From positions 1-57,928 of the IMG/VR virus record IMGVR_UViG_3300045747_000102: a DNA stretch of 57,928 bases; one strand, written 5' to 3'. The stretch's first letter is position 1. Each line of letters begins with the position of its first letter. Shown here piece after piece: positions 17,129 to 26,224 of this stretch. This DNA comes from a virus. Its lineage: Duplodnaviria > Caudoviricetes. The notes below the pieces were generated by a model. The model was not told where the DNA came from and ran no database searches. It saw only the letters and a list, made by a program, of their open reading frames with translations. The position numbers and the translations under genes were made by a program.

Positions 17129-17371
17129 ATGAAAAAGAAACGCAATTATGAGAATGGGATAGACTATCCAAACGACTTTACTCAGTCCGATTTTTTGGAC
17201 TCTGTAAGTTGTTCGGAGCTCATTATGGATACTGTTCCAATGGCTCTGATGTCTATGTTTGAAGATCCAAATGCGGCACCTGTGTCAGAATCGAAATTTG
17301 CTGCACTTGAACCAGCCGAAAATATTTGGGACACACCGAATATAACTCGGCATGATAAGCTGAATAAATAG
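17129..17371 (+). CDS. Hypothetical acidic protein
   Basis: 80-aa ORF with AAGG SD. Confidence 0.55.
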   Translation: MKKKRNYENGIDYPNDFTQSDFLDSVSCSELIMDTVPMALMSMFEDPNAAPVSESKFAALEPAENIWDTPNITRHDKLNK

Positions 17372-17375
17372 AAAA

Positions 17376-17720
17376 GAATGGTAGTAAACTGATCGTAAGA
17401 AACGATTGCAACACCCGGGTGCAATTCCCGGCAGCTCCACCAAAAGTATTTTGAAAAATTGATTCCGTAGGACTTGCAAGGAAACGCGGAAAAGATTGAG
17501 CACCGTGCTCTGTAGTCATTCACGGCGAGTTACGACTACCAAAATACTTTTGATGGGGCTGACTTAGGATCGACTGCGAAAGAAGTAATATTGTATTGGC
17601 TACTCGTCACGGATAGACGTAAAAAGCAAAAACGCAATTAAATGCAAACGAAGAAAGATTCGCTCTGGTCGCATGATCAAGCTGAGGACTAGAAATTGTT
17701 CCTTATCATCCAAACAACAA
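17376..17720 (+). ncRNA. ssrA: tmRNA, circularly permuted two-piece gene (acceptor piece - intervening segment - coding piece); ends approximate
   Basis: T-arm CCGGG-TGCAATT-CCCGG (17415-31) plus CAGCTCC-A-CCA (17432-42) lies upstream of GGGGCTG-ACTTAGGATCGAC (17555-74). 7-bp acceptor stem with G3.U70. P2 pairs TGCGA/TTGCA and GCTACT/GGTAGT. Tag ORF 17644-17676 = ANEERFALVA*. Confidence 0.93.
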
Positions 17721-17721
17721 A

Positions 17722-17750
17722 CTAGATGGGGCCTTCGGGCTCCATTTTAG
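17722..17750. terminator. Bidirectional intrinsic terminator between tmRNA and terminase
   Basis: ATGGGGCC-TTCG-GGCTCCAT followed by TTT, at the convergence of the two halves. Confidence 0.8.
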
Positions 17751-17752
17751 TT

Positions 17753-19390
17753 TCAGTCATAGCTTACATCTGATGTAAGCCAATTCTGTAATGGATCGCG
17801 CGAAGGACCAGATGAATGAATCATATTGAAGTCCATTGTAAGATCTTCCATGCCATCTGAAAATGCTCCAAACGGAGTCATATTTTCCATGATGTAGGCT
17901 TCGTTCTTCTGTGCCAATAGGTGCCGAATATTCACATTGGTTATATCGGCAAACATAGATTGTTTTGATAACCATCCGAAGAGCCACAAGCAAGTAGTCA
18001 AGTCATCATTGATATTCGTATCTGATGCCTGATATGAAACACCCTTTTGCTCAAATACATTCAGCTCTTGGATGATGTCAAAAGAATTAAGAATAAGTAC
18101 TTCACCTTCTACCAATTCCTTTAGCACAGAACAGCCAATGGACTTCACTCGTTTCGTAGTTCGTACACCAGGATAACCATTGCCCTCGGTTACATTTTCT
18201 TTCACTGTGAAATAGACGTTTGCATACTCAAATTCGTAAAATATAGTATTAGCAATTTCCTGTCCGGCATCGTTAATTTCAATCAGACAATATGCGTCAT
18301 TATACTGCTTAACGGTGTTAATGATCATGAAAGGATACGTCGTCAGTCCAATGGTGTTGTCTTTGAACGTAGCAGCGACTCGGTACGGTGTAGTAGTGAT
18401 GTCGAATATAACGAATGCGGAAAAGTCTAAATGCTGTCCCCGCGATGTATCTACTGTGCAAGCATATGAATGACCCTTTTGTGGCTCTTCATAGATCTTC
18501 AATCCCCCTTTGATAAACTTCGGATCAAAAAATGGTATTGTAGCCATTTTCTCACCAGAGATCAGAGTCTTTGAAGAACCGTGGAAGGTACAGTCAATTT
18601 CCTGTGCTGCCTTTACTGGTCCAAGATTTTTAACCTGTTCATCATACCAAGCCTGATCGCGGTCTGGGTGAGCTGACCAAGGAATGTTGAGCGGCACAAA
18701 TCCGTTTCGCCCAGCATTAGCCTCTACCCAGATCTTGTAGAACATATTCATACCCTTTGGTGTAGAGGATATGAAGATCTTTGTTTCTTTACCAGAAGAA
18801 AGTACTGGGAACACAGAAGTCATGAATTCTTCTGCTATGTTGTTTGGGATAAATGCAATTTCGTCGACATATACGTGGGTACAAGATTGACCCCGGATAG
18901 CATTAGGTGACGTAGCAGCCGTAAAGATCTTTGAGTTGTTGTCTAGTTTGATAGAACCTTTGTTCCACTCAACTACACCCTGCTGAATCCAAAACGGTAG
19001 ATTTTCATATGAGAACTGAATACGAGAAAGAATTTCCCGTGCCATTGCTGCCTTATTGGCAAGGATAGCAATGTTCTTGTCTGAATTGAACAGGATTACC
19101 CAAAGGAAATAAGCTGCGGTAGTAATCGTCTTACCCATCTGCCGAGCAGTAAGCACCACCGCTTTTCTGTTCTGGTGGTAGGTAAGAATGATGTCTTCTT
19201 GAAACGGATAGAGGCCGAACGGCACAGTTCCGCGGTCAACGTTAATGACCTTGACATACTTCTTGATGAAGTAAACTGGATCTTTAGAACACTTTATCCA
19301 CTCGTCTACCTGCTCTGAGGTAAATGAGATTTGGACACCAGAAGCCTTTAGGTTAAGTTGTCCATTATAGCATTCTGGTCTAGTAGCCAT
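17753..19390 (-). CDS. 17: Terminase large subunit (T4 gp17-like)
   Basis: KCSKDPVYF, ARQMGKT Walker A, ILANK, VYVDEIAF Walker B, ISSTPKGMNMFY, VDTSRG..DFSAF, NDDL. Confidence 0.95.
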   Translation of the reverse strand: MATRPECYNGQLNLKASGVQISFTSEQVDEWIKCSKDPVYFIKKYVKVINVDRGTVPFGLYPFQEDIILTYHQNRKAVVLTARQMGKTITTAAYFLWVILFNSDKNIAILANKAAMAREILSRIQFSYENLPFWIQQGVVEWNKGSIKLDNNSKIFTAATSPNAIRGQSCTHVYVDEIAFIPNNIAEEFMTSVFPVLSSGKETKIFISSTPKGMNMFYKIWVEANAGRNGFVPLNIPWSAHPDRDQAWYDEQVKNLGPVKAAQEIDCTFHGSSKTLISGEKMATIPFFDPKFIKGGLKIYEEPQKGHSYACTVDTSRGQHLDFSAFVIFDITTTPYRVAATFKDNTIGLTTYPFMIINTVKQYNDAYCLIEINDAGQEIANTIFYEFEYANVYFTVKENVTEGNGYPGVRTTKRVKSIGCSVLKELVEGEVLILNSFDIIQELNVFEQKGVSYQASDTNINDDLTTCLWLFGWLSKQSMFADITNVNIRHLLAQKNEAYIMENMTPFGAFSDGMEDLTMDFNMIHSSGPSRDPLQNWLTSDVSYD

Positions 19391-20105: not shown

Positions 20106-20396
20106 TTAACCGCCTGCAAAAACATTTCTAGATCCGGCTGCAGACACATCGCCGCAATCTATATCATCCCCAATTCTGTGAATTGGCTTTCCTTCTATTG
20201 ACACAGTGGAAGAACCAGTAGAGGCTTTCCCATCATGTGAAGATGTGCCTAACGAATGAGTTGGATAATGTGCTCCAACCACCGTGGCTAGTATACTATT
20301 TATGGACACGGTAGACTGTCCTGCTGTATCCGCGGCTCTGGGTTCATAACCATGACCTGCCGATTTGTCTACACCTACCCGGGTACATGCTGGCAT
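20106..20396 (-). CDS. 5.4: PAAR-like baseplate spike tip (T4 gp5.4-like)
   Basis: GH...H...H...GSSTV.IEGKPIHRIGD.IDCGD.SA.GS.NVFAG. Confidence 0.88.
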   Translation of the reverse strand: MPACTRVGVDKSAGHGYEPRAADTAGQSTVSINSILATVVGAHYPTHSLGTSSHDGKASTGSSTVSIEGKPIHRIGDDIDCGDVSAAGSRNVFAGG

Positions 20397-22327
20397 TATG
20401 CTAATTCCTTCTTAACGGCAGCCTTCAGTGCTAAGTTGGAAGCCGTATAGTTATAGTGGACAACGAGTTCATTCACCTGAGTCTTGGTCTCTAGAAGCAG
20501 TTCATCATAGTAATTTACTACAACATAGAAACTCTTGTTCTGGACGGCAGGAGCTGTATATCGTGTGATTCCAAAGTATTTATCGGGAAGATCTTTGAAT
20601 CTACTCACGGTTTGGACATTTTGATCCATATCGATGTATTCTATAGTCCGTTCAAAGACGTCATCAGCCTGACCTGTAGCATACACAGAATTTCCTACGG
20701 CATATAGATCCACACCTGGTAGTGGTTTTGAGAATGCATAAGCCGTGACTGGATATGGAGCAACCCAAGAAGTGGTGAATGGAACGAATTCCGTGGCTTC
20801 CTGAGTAGTGCCTGTAATTTCTGGGAAGTCACCAATAACATGCATGACCCCAGTCTGTACTTGAGACTGAGAACCAGACAGAGCAACTTGACGTTCTGGA
20901 TATACTCCACCAGGTCTTACAATAGACTGAACACCAGTAATTGGCGTACCTGTAATCTGACCACCGGTTGTTCCAATTGTACCAGCAAGAGCTGTAATTG
21001 TATTAGAACCTAGCAGTGCAGATTCGGTGTTGAATGAAGCAGGAGAACCAGGTGTAACTGTGGACTGAGCACCAGTCAGAGCAACCGAGATCTGTTTAAG
21101 AACATTGCCGAGAGTAGCAGAAGAACTTACACCAGTAAGAGCAAATATTCTTGATGCGGTTAGCGAACCAGCAGAAGAATTGATCGTAGCTGATGTCAGT
21201 GGTATGAATGCTCCCTGAAGTCCAGTTACAATTCCAGTAGATACAGTAGACTGAGAACCAGTAAGAGCAATATTGACTATCTGTGCAGGTACTTCAATAC
21301 CGGTAGATACAGTAGACTGAACACCGGTCAGTGCATAGGTATTAGTCTTGGCAATAGAACCAGAAGAAACTGTGGACTGAACACCAGTAAGTGCTGATGA
21401 TGCTACCGCAGCTGCTGTAAGAGTTCCTGCCGTATTGGTAGTTTGTTTACCTGTAAGTGCTGTAGAAGTTACCTGAGCACCAGTTAGAGTTCCAGCTGAT
21501 TCGGTAGACTGAACACCAGTAAGAGCAGTAGAAGTTACCTGGGCTGTGGTCAGAGTTCCAGCAGATTCTACTGATTGTACACCAGTGAGTGCCTTACTGA
21601 CCGTCTGAGCATCTGTTACAGAAGAAACAGATACTGTAGACTGAACACCAGTGAGTGCTTTAGATACCCCTTGAGCAGAAGTTAGAGTTCCAGATGTAAC
21701 TGTGGACTGAATGCCATTCAGTGCAGTAGAGGTTACCTGAGCAGAAGTAAGAATTCCAACCGAAGCTGTAGATTGGAAACCAGTTAGGGCTGTGGTAGTT
21801 GTCTGTGTTGTTCCGACAGATCCGGTAGCCGCGGTAGATTGGAAACCAGTTAGTGCTCGGGTGACTGCCTGAGAACCAGTAAGAGTTCCTGTGCCTGCTG
21901 TGGACTGAACACCAGTAATAGCAAAAGTTATTACCTGAGAACCGGTTAGAGTACCAGCAGATTCAGTAGATTGGGCACCAGTAAGTGCTCGGGAAACGGT
22001 CTGTGTCCCGGTTAGAGTTCCGGTAGATGCTGCTGATTGGAAACCAGTCAGAACTGTGGAAGTTGCCTGGCCAGTACTAAGAGTTCCAGTAGAAACTGTA
22101 ACTTGTTTACCGGTAAGTACAGAAGTTTGAGCTGCGCCACCAGTAATGGTGCCTACTTGAGCTGTAGATTGGAAACCAGTAAGCGCTTTAGATACTGCTT
22201 GAGTACCAGTAAGAGTACCTACCTGAGCTGTAGATTGGAAACCCGATAGATTGACTGTAATGTCGCCTGATACGACATTTAGCCCACCTAGTGAGAACGA
22301 ACCTAATGAGCCGGAACCAAAAGACAT
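20396..22327 (-). CDS. Thr/Ser/Gly-rich tandem-repeat virion protein
   Basis: About 22 repeats of about 22 aa (ALTGxQSTxxxGTLTxxQxxxx) followed by a globular C-terminal domain. Confidence 0.75.
   Translation of the reverse strand: MSFGSGSLGSFSLGGLNVVSGDITVNLSGFQSTAQVGTLTGTQAVSKALTGFQSTAQVGTITGGAAQTSVLTGKQVTVSTGTLSTGQATSTVLTGFQSAASTGTLTGTQTVSRALTGAQSTESAGTLTGSQVITFAITGVQSTAGTGTLTGSQAVTRALTGFQSTAATGSVGTTQTTTTALTGFQSTASVGILTSAQVTSTALNGIQSTVTSGTLTSAQGVSKALTGVQSTVSVSSVTDAQTVSKALTGVQSVESAGTLTTAQVTSTALTGVQSTESAGTLTGAQVTSTALTGKQTTNTAGTLTAAAVASSALTGVQSTVSSGSIAKTNTYALTGVQSTVSTGIEVPAQIVNIALTGSQSTVSTGIVTGLQGAFIPLTSATINSSAGSLTASRIFALTGVSSSATLGNVLKQISVALTGAQSTVTPGSPASFNTESALLGSNTITALAGTIGTTGGQITGTPITGVQSIVRPGGVYPERQVALSGSQSQVQTGVMHVIGDFPEITGTTQEATEFVPFTTSWVAPYPVTAYAFSKPLPGVDLYAVGNSVYATGQADDVFERTIEYIDMDQNVQTVSRFKDLPDKYFGITRYTAPAVQNKSFYVVVNYYDELLLETKTQVNELVVHYNYTASNLALKAAVKKELA
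20845..22249 (-). repeat. Degenerate about 66-bp coding tandem repeat
   Basis: Recurrent (a/t)ga(c/t)tg(a/g)a(c/a)accagt units on the + strand encoding TG(V/F)QS. Confidence 0.8.
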
Positions 22328-22333
22328 TTAGTC

Positions 22334-25300
22334 CTACTTTCCGATAAGTTCGTTTAGTTTTCTATTTGTTTCGGCCAATTCAGCTCTTAGAATTTCTATG
22401 ATCGACTTCATTTCTACCACTTCTTTTGCAAGCTCCACGGCAGAAACCATAGCAGCATTGCCGTAGGCAACAGAAAGATGTTCACCATCTAAAACTGCTT
22501 CTGGAAGAAGAGTTTGCAAGCTCTGAGCTGATACACCAACCTGTCTTAAATCATTATCAATCCGAGTATAAGAACCGTGTTTGATGTCTGCAAGTTGTTC
22601 AACAAAGTTAGTAGCAAGAGGAGCCCAGTCTTTCTTTAATCTTTCATCTGAATATGCTGTTACATTGCCTGTAGCAACAAAGCTGCCACCCGCATTAACT
22701 TGAGCACCATCGCCACAAAGTTGAACTGTTCCATTAGATAAATTCCATGCGAATGGTCTAAATGTATTCCACGATGCTGTGTTTGCTGCAGCTTGTGTAG
22801 TTTGAACAGCGGATGATAGTAAGTAAACATTAGATCCATCATTACGTATCATTGCATTGTACCACGTCGAAGCAGAACCGGCAACTGCATGGAACTGTCC
22901 AACTGATGGAGTTCCTGATCCAATGAAGACCGTACCTGTATATGCATTGGCAGTATTCAGAGCATTGGCAGTTGCCGCAGTACCATCAATAGATGTAATG
23001 CCAGTAAGAGCAATAGCAGCCGAAGCTCTGTTATGAGCAATAGATGTGGTACCAATGAAAAATGTCGCAGAAGGTGCTACATAGTTAGTACCTGCAACAA
23101 AGTTTGCAGCACGGTAATCTGATGCATAATTAGAATTAGCAGAATTGTCGCCGGTATTTGTACCTGAACTTGAACCAGAAAAGTTGGCTGAATTGAATGT
23201 TCCAGCTACATAACCACCTGCAGTCATGACACCGGTCGTGGGAACAAAAGATAACTTTGTTCCGGATGTCATTATTGCCTGTGCTCCACCGTTACCAATA
23301 GAAGATACCCAGACAGGATAATATGAAGCAGATGCAACAACGTTGTCAGAGATGTAAGATGAGCTCGATACGCCGGAAAAACCGGCTGTAAGTCCTGATG
23401 CAACACCAGTACAGTTAGTTAGTACACCCGATGCTGGTGTACCTAGAGCACTATTTGTTGTTAGGGCACCAACTTGAGCTGCCGTAGGTGCAGACCAAGC
23501 ACCATTACCGTTCAACCAAAGAGCCGTATTTGAAGCACCCTGTGTAGTAACAATACCAGAGGTTGTACCGTTCAGTGTTGCAATATTATGAACGTGATCT
23601 GATCTGGCAACCAGTGTAGAAGTACCAACAGCTGCTGTTCCAATAGCGGCCGGGGCAGCAGTAGCTAATTGACCGATCTGAGCATTTGAAATTGTAGCTG
23701 TCACTGTTTCAAATGCTGTTGCCTGGAAGCCAATAGACCAACCAGAATTCATCAATACAGTCCGGCCATTATATCCAACTAAACATTCAGTCACAAAAAT
23801 TTGTGGATACGACCAAACAGTTCCGAGTTCACCGATGTAAATCACGGCCTTGCCTCCAGCGGTGTAACCTAAACGAACTGTGTAGTTTAAGTTTACACCG
23901 GCTGGAGCTGTTATATAAGCAAATGGATTGTTTGCCCAAGTATTTCCTGTAGCATATGCATAACCGCCTGCATCAACCTCAAATGCTGTATTAGCTCCAT
24001 AAAGATAAATTTTTATTTTTACCCGCATCATAGAGTCTAACATACCTACGGGTAGTGTAATTGCTATAGCACCGGTCTGAGATGAAGTATTTGTTACATA
24101 ATAGCCGCCACCTGGATTGACTGTTCTTGCATATGACGTATCTGTAACACCACCAGCACCCATACGGAGTCCACCATTGGACATGAATGTACCAGCAACA
24201 ACTTCTGTATTACCTAGACCTGCCGTAATTTCTGTATTAGCATTTCTTACACCAACTGCTGGATCAACCCAATAACTTCTGATGCCACCTGTATTGATCA
24301 AGTTGGCACCAGCATCCTGGAGTGTAAACATTCTAGAGATACCAAGGCCGGCAGCAGCTGTGCCTGTTGATTTTCTGATTATCTGTGAGCCACTTGGAAC
24401 ATCCGTAGTACCAGCAGATGAATAGACCGAACGATAACCATCGCCATTGATAGAGAATATAGGTGTTGCATATGCATTTCTGAACACAAAGCCGCGGTTC
24501 GTACCGTTGGTCATTGTGAAATACATGTTGTAATCCGATGTACTTTCACCAGGAATTCTACCACCATATGTAGTATCAGCAGAGGTTGACATCATCATAC
24601 CATAGCTAAGAGCGGAGCCACCCCAGAAACCGTAACCGTAGTTATTGGCAGCTTTTGTGTATATGCCGTTGGTATTGAATCCATGAGTTATACCATCGGT
24701 AGAACCCGAAGCATACATCACAAGTGTACCGGTACCAGAATTCGTAATAGTTGGAATGCCTGCACCGTATACACCACCCCAGGAAATATTCAAACCAGAG
24801 TTCAGTGTGAGACCTTGTGTTCCGCGAACTGTCAATCCAGTATCAGTTACTTCGGCCGCAACAGCTGTATTCCAAAGTCCGGGTACCAGTTTGATAGTTT
24901 TGCTGGCAGCATTGGGGCTAATTATCATGTTGCCGATGCCATTGGTGATCAAAGAATCACCTGCAACTGCATTAGCTAATGCGCCAGCAAATAAATTTAA
25001 ATTGAAGACGCCGCCGCCAGCAGTTGTATTTGTGAACGTAACTGGAGTTGTGTAGCTTGCATTAGCTCCAGACAGACTCATCGTAACACCATTGATGTTA
25101 TATGGGAACGTAGTCTGCATGTTTGATGCGACTGTGAGCCAAGAATTCAAAGTTCCGACACCGGAAGCATTAGTCCGAGCAAAGTATAGCAGACCGTTAG
25201 CAGGTGCCATCCCAATTGTCGAATATGTGGTGTTGTCTGGCTTCAGTGCCATAACAGAATACGATAATGCCCAACCAGATGTTGCATCCGAGAAACCACC

Positions 25301-26224
25301 TAGCCATGCACCAATATTGCCAGCTGTAACCAAGTTAGTGGCAGACGCTGTAAGAGAACCGATCGGTAATGTACCGGTAAGACCTGCAGAAGATATTCTA
25401 AACTTTTCGGTAGTTGTTCCGTTTACCCCATTACCGGTCTGGAATCCAATCGCAGTTGCTTGGTTGTAGATCTTGATACCAGAATTGTATACGTTAGCAT
25501 CAACTGCACCAAGATCAAGATAACCACCTTGAGCAGTTACACCATAACCACGTACGGAACCACCATAGGTCTGACCAAGTACGTTGTCGGTTAGATAAAG
25601 TCTGGCTGTAGCAGCTTCATAGATTGTAACGCGGCCGTTGGTGCCCAAACCGGTAGAAGTATTGACACCCACATTACCAGAGCCATCAACGCGGACACGC
25701 TCGGTATTATTCGTACCGAAAGTCAGCGGAGTATTTGCTCTGTTCCAGACGTAAGTCATTGCAGAGTCTTGAATGATGTCAAATGATGCTCCAGTCAACG
25801 GAGTTGATCCATGTCCGGCCAGAGATAGATAAGAAGATTGACCAGTAATAGAGCGAACAGCTACCACATTTGGACCAGCTGTGGGCACAGAAACATCTAG
25901 TTTATAAACAGGAGAAGCCGTACCGATACCGACATTGCCACCGTACTGAGCAAGTTTGATTGTTCCAGTATCTAGCACTTCAATGCTTGGCATACCAGAG
26001 ATGTCATTCACCGAGAAGATTGAACCAGACAGAGTATTAGCGACAGAGAATAGTTGACCAGCCGAACCTTCTAAAGAAATAGTTCCTGACTGTGTTGGAT
26101 AGACTCTAAGTGAAATTGGGAATGGACCCGTAGACGATGTGGCACCGGTAAAGACAATCTTGGGGTCATCTGTGGCCGATCCCACATTCGGAGTGATTAC
26201 GATGTTTTTGTCAGTAAGTGCCAT
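22334..26224 (-). CDS. Long tail fibre / receptor-binding protein with C-terminal S74 intramolecular chaperone
   Basis: GNVGIGT.SP repeats, ARSDHVH, and C-terminal GNVTAYSDERLKKD...GVSAQ..Q..LPEAV...LSVAYGN plus coiled coil. Confidence 0.88.
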   Translation of the reverse strand: MALTDKNIVITPNVGSATDDPKIVFTGATSSTGPFPISLRVYPTQSGTISLEGSAGQLFSVANTLSGSIFSVNDISGMPSIEVLDTGTIKLAQYGGNVGIGTASPVYKLDVSVPTAGPNVVAVRSITGQSSYLSLAGHGSTPLTGASFDIIQDSAMTYVWNRANTPLTFGTNNTERVRVDGSGNVGVNTSTGLGTNGRVTIYEAATARLYLTDNVLGQTYGGSVRGYGVTAQGGYLDLGAVDANVYNSGIKIYNQATAIGFQTGNGVNGTTTEKFRISSAGLTGTLPIGSLTASATNLVTAGNIGAWLGGFSDATSGWALSYSVMALKPDNTTYSTIGMAPANGLLYFARTNASGVGTLNSWLTVASNMQTTFPYNINGVTMSLSGANASYTTPVTFTNTTAGGGVFNLNLFAGALANAVAGDSLITNGIGNMIISPNAASKTIKLVPGLWNTAVAAEVTDTGLTVRGTQGLTLNSGLNISWGGVYGAGIPTITNSGTGTLVMYASGSTDGITHGFNTNGIYTKAANNYGYGFWGGSALSYGMMMSTSADTTYGGRIPGESTSDYNMYFTMTNGTNRGFVFRNAYATPIFSINGDGYRSVYSSAGTTDVPSGSQIIRKSTGTAAAGLGISRMFTLQDAGANLINTGGIRSYWVDPAVGVRNANTEITAGLGNTEVVAGTFMSNGGLRMGAGGVTDTSYARTVNPGGGYYVTNTSSQTGAIAITLPVGMLDSMMRVKIKIYLYGANTAFEVDAGGYAYATGNTWANNPFAYITAPAGVNLNYTVRLGYTAGGKAVIYIGELGTVWSYPQIFVTECLVGYNGRTVLMNSGWSIGFQATAFETVTATISNAQIGQLATAAPAAIGTAAVGTSTLVARSDHVHNIATLNGTTSGIVTTQGASNTALWLNGNGAWSAPTAAQVGALTTNSALGTPASGVLTNCTGVASGLTAGFSGVSSSSYISDNVVASASYYPVWVSSIGNGGAQAIMTSGTKLSFVPTTGVMTAGGYVAGTFNSANFSGSSSGTNTGDNSANSNYASDYRAANFVAGTNYVAPSATFFIGTTSIAHNRASAAIALTGITSIDGTAATANALNTANAYTGTVFIGSGTPSVGQFHAVAGSASTWYNAMIRNDGSNVYLLSSAVQTTQAAANTASWNTFRPFAWNLSNGTVQLCGDGAQVNAGGSFVATGNVTAYSDERLKKDWAPLATNFVEQLADIKHGSYTRIDNDLRQVGVSAQSLQTLLPEAVLDGEHLSVAYGNAAMVSAVELAKEVVEMKSIIEILRAELAETNRKLNELIGK

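Follow-up and report, generated by a model that had tools for sequence, protein, structure and literature searches.

A conserved helix closes an unremarkable intervening segment in a phage permuted tmRNA gene

The DNA analyzed here is a virus record from IMG/VR, 57,928 bases long and with an estimated completeness of 33%; we call this whole stretch the window. Among its products are a large terminase of the T4 type, a ligase, a DNA polymerase, and a recombinase and a helicase that resemble UvsX and DnaB, respectively. The whole stretch is present in four public runs labelled as pond or wetland metagenomes. It probably derives from a large T4-like freshwater phage with a two-piece tmRNA gene. 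The parts of this gene are listed in Table 1. Two Rfam covariance models recognize it above their cut-offs: RF04321 (tmRNA_permuted), with 99.5 bits against a cut-off of 47 at 17380-17676, and RF01850 (beta_tmRNA), with 90.7 bits against a cut-off of 84 at 17329-17749. The parts stand in permuted order: first the T-arm and the 3′ acceptor strand with its CCA, then the 5′ acceptor strand, and then the tag frame. The third pair of the 7-bp acceptor stem is G17557 opposite T17436, the G3·U70 pair of alanine identity. The tag frame, which aligns to the tag region of the model, runs for ten codons from a GCA resume codon at 17644 to a TGA at 17674-76; read from the sequence, the tag peptide is ANEERFALVA, with the alanine resume codon first. 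At its end, the terminal hairpin and U-run of the gene directly abut the stop codon of the convergent terminase gene. Downstream of the terminase lie, both on the minus strand, a 643-aa protein (20396-22327) whose sole match, CoxG-like, is weak and local, and a fibre-like protein of 1296 aa (22334-26224) that combines a gp34-type trimerisation domain with a chaperone end of the Peptidase_S74 kind. A minus-strand ORF of 113 aa at 17182-17523, which runs across the acceptor piece and half of the intervening segment, has no Pfam or PHROG match at E ≤ 0.1, and we took it as spurious.

Table 1. Positions in the window of the parts of the permuted tmRNA gene and of the adjoining terminase gene
Feature	Positions	Strand	Basis
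Circularly permuted tmRNA gene	17380-17750	+	Rfam
Acceptor piece (5′ pairing strand, T-arm, 3′ acceptor strand, encoded ACCA at 17439-17442)	17380-17442	+	RF04321 and RF01850 alignments, sequence
Intervening segment (IVS), 112 nt, between the encoded CCA end and G1	17443-17554	+	Sequence, Rfam
Closing helix, 5′ strand, including the last C and A of the CCA end	17441-17453	+	Perfect 13-bp pairing, pair probabilities
IVS interior with three idiosyncratic hairpins, non-conserved filler (probable reading)	17454-17539	+	z -0.82, no relative, no Rfam match, longest ORF 13 codons
Closing helix, 3′ strand, followed by A17553 and T17554	17540-17552	+	Perfect 13-bp pairing
Coding piece (5′ acceptor strand from G17555, tag frame 17644-17676, terminal hairpin)	17555-17750	+	Rfam, RNAfold, sequence
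Terminal hairpin with U-run ending the tmRNA gene	~17726-17752	+	RNAfold of precursor, sequence
Large terminase, T4-type, convergent with the tmRNA gene	17753-19390	-	Pfam Terminase_6N 2.6e-23, Terminase_6C 2e-08

The feature under study is the intervening segment (IVS). The original prediction gave it 112 nt, at 17443-17554, and this layout is confirmed; it makes the IVS of the window some 85-100 nt longer than the Rfam consensus loop. ARAGORN called 0 genes in the window, although the two Rfam tmRNA models pass their cut-offs. Probably the long spacer defeats its search for permuted genes, so such tmRNA genes would be overlooked in routine phage annotation. In gene order, encoded CCA, G·U alanine pair, and tag frame, the gene resembles the bacterial permuted tmRNA genes of the Caulobacter type (alpha- and beta-proteobacterial and cyanobacterial; RF04321, RF01849-51). 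It differs from them in the IVS, since the Rfam loop is ~25-35 nt long and modelled as unpaired, whereas the window has 112 nt and a long in-register stem. For studied two-piece tmRNAs, it is reported that the IVS is absent from the mature RNA (PMC7335160, PMC11915505), that a 372-nt precursor in Orientia gives pieces of ~80 and ~240 nt (PMC7335160), and that the content of bacterial IVSs is variable and includes a tRNA gene and a repetitive element (PMC11915505). Two-piece tmRNAs of phages are also already in print: PMC9004378 describes OM43 phage Melnitz and the pelagimyophages, which, like the source of the window, are large aquatic T4-like phages with a complete permuted ssrA. Those genes are described there as alphaproteobacterial in type with a glutamine riboswitch at the 3′ domain, whereas in the window the beta type is the best older Rfam model and Rfam found no riboswitch at the tmRNA gene.

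The IVS is closed by a helix. Its 5′ strand, CAAAAGTATTTTG, pairs perfectly with its 3′ strand, CAAAATACTTTTG, over 13 bp, at exactly the coordinates originally given. It had been predicted that this helix continues the acceptor stem across one C·A mismatch and buries the CCA end, and the pairs as read out agree: C17440 lies opposite A17553 as the mismatch, the discriminator A17439 pairs with T17554, the last four bases of the IVS are TGAT, and the 7 bp of the acceptor stem (17432-17438 with 17555-17561, the third pair being G·U) follow directly. The duplex in the window thus counts 7 pairs, 4 positions with the one mismatch, and 11 further IVS pairs, or about two helical turns. When the 377-nt precursor was folded with RNAfold, the pairs of the acceptor stem and the closing helix had probabilities of 0.99-1.0. 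The whole IVS folds at -34 kcal/mol with a z of -4.5, and 1 of 200 shuffles was as good. This excess is due to the closing helix, since the 86-nt interior alone reaches -20 kcal/mol and a z of -0.82, with 29 of 200 shuffles as good. We also forced 17443-17453 to be unpaired in the thermodynamic model. This cost ~15 kcal/mol, and the acceptor stem still formed with a probability of 0.99. With or without the closing helix the acceptor stem therefore forms, so the helix is not required for equilibrium folding, and a role as a folding clamp finds no support in equilibrium folding.

We then considered whether other phages have the same helix. A terminase search gave 79 loci, and the records behind 50 of these were searched with RF04321, which passed its cut-off in 3, gave weak matches in 2, and found nothing in 45. 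An exact 18-mer spanning the 3′ helix strand and G1 returned 15 loci. Five of them are chance matches in coding DNA; the other ten are tmRNA genes, among which 7 different IVSs occur, with lengths of 63-175 nt. A pattern blind to the IVS, consisting of both acceptor strands with 90-120 free bases between them, hit at least 120 IMG/VR stretches. The matches listed in these searches provided 96 distinct IVS strings from 130 loci plus the window. A filter for tmRNA-like downstream sequence passed 81 and dropped 15; among those dropped, L133 ends at the edge of its locus, L139 looks real and has a variant downstream motif, and the rest look coding. By shared 8-mers, the 81 IVSs from the matches listed fall into 43 clusters.

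The helix recurs in nearly all of them. Under a strict rule, the exact register from the discriminator base is kept in 38 of the 43 cluster representatives from the matches listed, and in all 38 the helix starts with A-U, C·A, C-G, and A-U and goes on with a paired run that has 3-5 pair types per column. Among the matches listed, helix positions 4-13 are 95% paired in register, compared with 35-60% when the 3′ strand is slid by 1-3 positions, and cognate strands form 9.5 of 10 pairs, compared with 6.7 for strands taken from different clusters. This pairing control was made at the level of clusters, as an earlier non-cognate control had been inflated by family members (95th percentile, 15). Leaving aside the ACCA/UGAU part, 42 of the 43 listed clusters have 9-25 in-register pairs, with a median of 12; counting the acceptor stem, ACCA/UGAU, and the helix together, at least 20 stacked positions are found in 42 of 43 clusters, again among the matches listed. 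The helix of the window, with 14 pairs in 15 positions, equals the phage median for the listed matches, and the TGAT that precedes G1 in the window does so in 73 of the 81 distinct phage IVSs listed. The exception to the in-register helix is the L129/L213 cluster, which looks like something else; in L213, tRNA-like sequence comes directly after the CCA end, without a closing stem.

The kind of pairs that vary shows on which molecule selection acts. Of 342 helix cells in the matches listed, 316 are Watson-Crick, 20 are G·U, 0 are A·C, and 6 are other. An excess of G·U over A·C points to selection on the transcribed strand, that is, on RNA and not on DNA. One could also imagine that the inverted repeat acts at the DNA level, where a hairpin or cruciform would serve as a site of recombination or homing for the exchange of IVSs, with the RNA helix a by-product. 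Such a site would fit the block replacement of IVSs between nearly identical genes, described below, but a DNA hairpin has to form on each of the two strands and would not tolerate the asymmetry in these 342 listed cells, and the swapped cassettes bring their own, different stems, which means that the stem travels with its cassette and that there is no fixed site. We consider a DNA site very improbable. The closing helix is a conserved, covarying, selected RNA element of phage two-piece tmRNA genes.

Bacterial genes with the same acceptor strands look different. In species-representative genomes of bacteria, 39 of 120 listed matches with 20-50 nt between the strands are tmRNA-like, 36 of them distinct, and the hairpins in these short listed IVSs frequently fail to keep register. 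With 90-120 nt between the strands, only 5 of 121 listed bacterial matches are tmRNA-like, and 2 of those 5 look coding, compared with 81 of 96 distinct strings of 63-175 nt among the listed matches in phage contigs. From these counts, long, stem-closed, in-register spacers appear to be a phage trait.

The interior of the IVS behaves differently from its stem. The earlier interpretation of the IVS stood for the helix, which is conserved and covaries as RNA in 42 of 43 clusters among the matches listed, and did not stand for the structure of the interior as an argument for a cargo. The three predicted inner hairpins, TTCCG/CGGAA at 17463-67/17487-91, GAGCA-ccg-TGCTC at 17498-17510, and GTAGTC/GACTAC at 17512-17/17534-39, are all present and are returned by RNAfold. 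From them it had been argued that a spacer meant to be discarded would have no need of so much structure. This argument fails for the three hairpins, since the interior folds no better than shuffles. It is also typical of its kind: over 42 phage IVS interiors among the matches listed, the median z is -0.72, and 5 of the 42 are below -2.

If the interior were a cargo, the IVS might be released as a stable structured small RNA that, for instance, regulates as an sRNA, acts as a ribozyme, or lures anticodon nucleases away as a decoy. In favour of this, 3′ exonucleases would be expected to have difficulty with a stem-closed RNA whose ends are almost flush, the whole IVS has the low z given above, and, as described below, the slot holds selected cargo in other phages and interiors are swapped as blocks. 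We therefore looked at what the interior resembles. The hairpin loops have 17, 3, and 5 nt in the centroid structure, and none is a 7-nt anticodon-like loop. ARAGORN found no tRNA gene and Rfam no tRNA at E ≤ 10 in 17430-17565, and a search with Rfam 15 at E ≤ 10 for ribozyme and sRNA families gave only tmRNA models and noise. The best match other than tmRNA was RAGATH-23 on the minus strand, with 16.3 bits against a cut-off of 92.6 and an E value of 0.49. The longest ORF in the IVS of the window has 13 codons and a TTG start without an SD-like motif, unlike the mini-genes of other phages, in which an ORF of about 25-50 codons behind a ribosome-binding site takes up the IVS. A promoter and terminator scan of the IVS found no plus-strand signal, with counts near those of shuffles; a terminator-like match occurs on the minus strand only, at the GAGCA hairpin.

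Relatives of the interior were sought as well. No second copy was found in 1.75 Mb of fetched loci, and a 20-mer from the interior and a 22-mer across the CCA/IVS junction each had 0 matches in IMG/VR. Exact patterns for close relatives had 0 matches in two metagenome scans; the record of the window itself may have been excluded from all these pattern scans. In addition, blastn in distant mode with 17329-17760 found no match in a phage GenBank collection. A covariance model of the three-hairpin interior found only itself in 88 sources totalling 787 kb, namely, the window and 87 of 115 tmRNA-bearing loci, the 28 omitted loci having an IVS identical to an included one. Three weak matches of this model (E 1-10) lie outside the IVSs of their loci and were discarded.

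Comparison by full IVS was made with one close relative, the nearest phage, which has a complete genome of 192 kb and a terminase 91% identical to that of the window. It keeps the mature tmRNA parts and the first eight helix pairs, while its interior is alignable in one short patch only and folds into different hairpins. In this relative (L003:7922-8260), the tmRNA gene lies ~2.3 kb beyond the terminase, whereas the two abut in the window, which indicates an insertion or rearrangement between them. In another relative, with a terminase 90% identical to the window's (L002:5651-6440), a 223-aa ORF without a Pfam match occupies the position of the tmRNA gene. It shows a GIY-YIG-like YVY...FYIG pattern, seen by eye only; the last ~40 bases and the terminal hairpin remain of the tmRNA gene, and upstream is a T-arm-like hairpin, but ARAGORN called no tRNA.

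Contigs of relatives from four public runs gave the same picture as the nearest phage: the mature parts match at 90-100%, followed by unlike sequence. Positions 17470-17537 are without read cover in these four runs, and we did not count this as evidence but used the loose ends of contigs instead. A contig of run X7 diverges after 17446, with one difference in the 77 bases before; a contig of run X10, an RNA library from a relative that was compared at the level of contigs, diverges after 17453; and a contig of run X5 is unlike the window before 17548 and matches from there. In runs X5 and X6, pieces of 31-34 nt (within 17413-17446) lead into terminator-like hairpins; these pieces were not counted as IVS variants. 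A 26-base stretch of the T-arm and 3′ acceptor strand within the same positions is identical in Elusimicrobiota, Saccharibacteria, and Hyphobacterium assemblies (L220-L231), and given this shared 26-mer the short pieces are probably unrelated bacterial tmRNA 3′ ends. The 26-mer is too short and too conserved to name a host, and we did not use it for that.

The sequence and structure of the interior are thus not conserved between the window and either the nearest phage or the contigs of relatives, one of the outcomes that the original prediction had itself named as speaking against it. Its stable, cloverleaf-like cargo RNA has no counterpart in any tRNA, ribozyme, or Rfam family at E ≤ 10, no 7-nt loop, no conservation, and no structural look-alike or other copy in the loci searched, and its interior, ordinary among the 42 listed, folds like shuffled sequence. 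We regard release of the IVS as a stable small RNA as quite improbable. A dedicated cargo RNA in the IVS of the window is unlikely, and a cargo of any kind is a minority possibility.

What the slot holds in other phages bears on where such an interior could come from. The flanks of L191 and L150 agree at 81 of 81 positions upstream and 158 of 160 downstream, yet the two IVSs, of 104 nt and 102 nt, are unrelated, each bringing its own, different closing stem. Among the matches listed, genes whose mature parts are at least 80% identical have IVSs from different clusters in 58 of 118 pairs. Unrelated IVSs between near-identical flanks indicate that the content of the IVS is replaced as a block. 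Some of this content is coding. ORFs of at least 20 codons occur in 12 of 43 listed clusters, whereas 50 shuffles gave 6.5 such clusters on average and never more than 10. The largest family, with an IVS of 103 nt (L104, L141, L167, L103, L111, L119, L127, and others), has a hydrophobic ORF of 30 codons that is open in 17 of 17 variants among the matches listed and has its ribosome-binding site and its stop codon in the two strands of the closing stem. Variation in this family is highest at third codon positions, and 589 of 1752 codon differences between the listed variants are synonymous in frame; the other two frames give 210 of 1805 and 120 of 1799. This pattern of substitution indicates that the same slot carries selected mini-genes in other phages. 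Further phage spacers have different ORFs of 27-50 codons (L193/L195/L135, L105, L184, L199, and L086). In L192 and L194/L106, the 3′ part of the IVS has a GGTTCAAxTCC T-loop hairpin set against the 3′ strand of the closing stem, in a tRNA-like layout.

Given block replacement and mini-genes elsewhere, an orphan non-coding insert such as that of the window could still be lineage-specific cargo. The IVS would then be a cassette slot in which whole inserts with their own stems are exchanged as accessory payloads on the strong tmRNA promoter, and the interior of the window would be a lineage-specific non-coding payload and not filler. If this were true, the interior might be, for example, a small RNA directed against the host or a rival phage and released in equimolar amounts with the tmRNA. 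We hold a payload in the window to be improbable.

In our preferred reading, the interior is filler, and the precursor would mature as follows. A single transcript of ~375 nt would be made from the permuted gene, and in its tRNA-like domain the acceptor piece would pair with the start of the coding piece. By analogy with the studied two-piece tmRNAs, the 112-nt IVS would be excised and discarded. The closing stem would prolong the 7-bp acceptor stem through ACCA/UGAU, with its one C·A mismatch, into a coaxial duplex of ~24 bp, and this duplex may both mark the excision site and shield the tmRNA fold from the interior. A double-strand-specific cut, for which host RNase III is the likeliest enzyme, would detach the interior; RNase P would then make the 5′ end at G17555, 3′ exonucleases would trim to the CCA end, and the released piece would presumably be degraded. 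The 86-nt interior with its three hairpins would be unselected filler, probably left by the turnover of cassettes in the slot, with no function of its own. Overall, the IVS is probably a discarded spacer with a selected stem that marks and insulates the excision site and an interior that is freely replaceable.

Three features together suggest a site for a double-strand nuclease: the helix is exactly in register to the acceptor stem, the duplex has a minimum length of about two helical turns, and a 13-bp duplex on the 3′ end would block exonucleases. The RNase III step taken alone is tentative, and we find it somewhat easier to doubt than to accept. RNase P reads a free RCCA, and a buried CCA end would be expected to hinder it, which makes the order of the cuts uncertain.

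It may instead be that the helix is an insulator or folding clamp only and not a nuclease site, with the IVS removed by the usual tRNA enzymes: RNase P would cut at G1, and the CCA end would be made by RNase E or tRNase Z together with exonucleases. Bacterial RNase P prefers a U at -1, and U is invariant there in 38 of 38 representatives from the matches listed. The C·A mismatch at the middle C of CCA, conserved in the same 38 of 38 listed representatives, could keep the CCA end openable, and variable cargo would need insulation. For permuted precursors in general, a review names RNase P and tRNase Z, "probably," as the processing enzymes (PMC3985003). But an insulator could do without exact register to the acceptor stem and without a minimum of 9 further pairs, and the short bacterial IVS hairpins among the matches listed frequently fall out of register. 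In the model, the acceptor stem does not need the helix to form, and a 13-bp duplex on the 3′ end would be expected to block the trimming exonucleases unless it is cut or unwound. We judge an insulator alone, together with the enzymes it calls for, to be possible but rather unlikely. Either way, the position and conservation of the closing helix make a role in maturation plausible.

For excision at a stem, the closest working analogy is with the 23S rRNA intervening sequences. In helix 25 or 45 of the 23S rRNA of Salmonella, Leptospira, and Coxiella, such sequences are excised by RNase III without re-ligation. They would share with the phage IVS a variable, sporadic insert, a long closing duplex, removal from the precursor of a stable RNA, and a functional RNA left in pieces. 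They differ in the host RNA and in position, and fragmentation is caused by the insert there, whereas in tmRNA it is inherent to the permuted gene. On this analogy, cleavage of the phage IVS by RNase III is predicted. Some 23S rRNA intervening sequences carry an ORF (PMC4990558). A second likeness is to the permuted tRNA genes of Cyanidioschyzon, green algae, and Thermofilum. There, the 3′ and 5′ acceptor ends are connected by a spacer that RNase P and a 3′ endonuclease take out (PMC3978253); these spacers differ in having 1-74 bp, and the tRNA passes through a circular intermediate and has its halves ligated, whereas the tmRNA pieces stay separate.

In the main text of the papers searched, we found no publication on a conserved stem of phage IVSs, on block exchange of IVSs, or on genes inside them. 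What our analysis adds beyond those papers is that in phages the spacers are long and closed by a stem, which covaries and lengthens the acceptor stem to about two turns of helix, and that the content of these spacers is exchanged as a block. The IVS of the window is an ordinary member of this phage type of spacer, with a stem that is real and conserved and an interior that is unremarkable, and annotating its three hairpins as a new RNA would not be justified. The conserved stem also raises a testable question, namely, how permuted tmRNA precursors are cut, which the review gives only as "probable" (PMC3985003).
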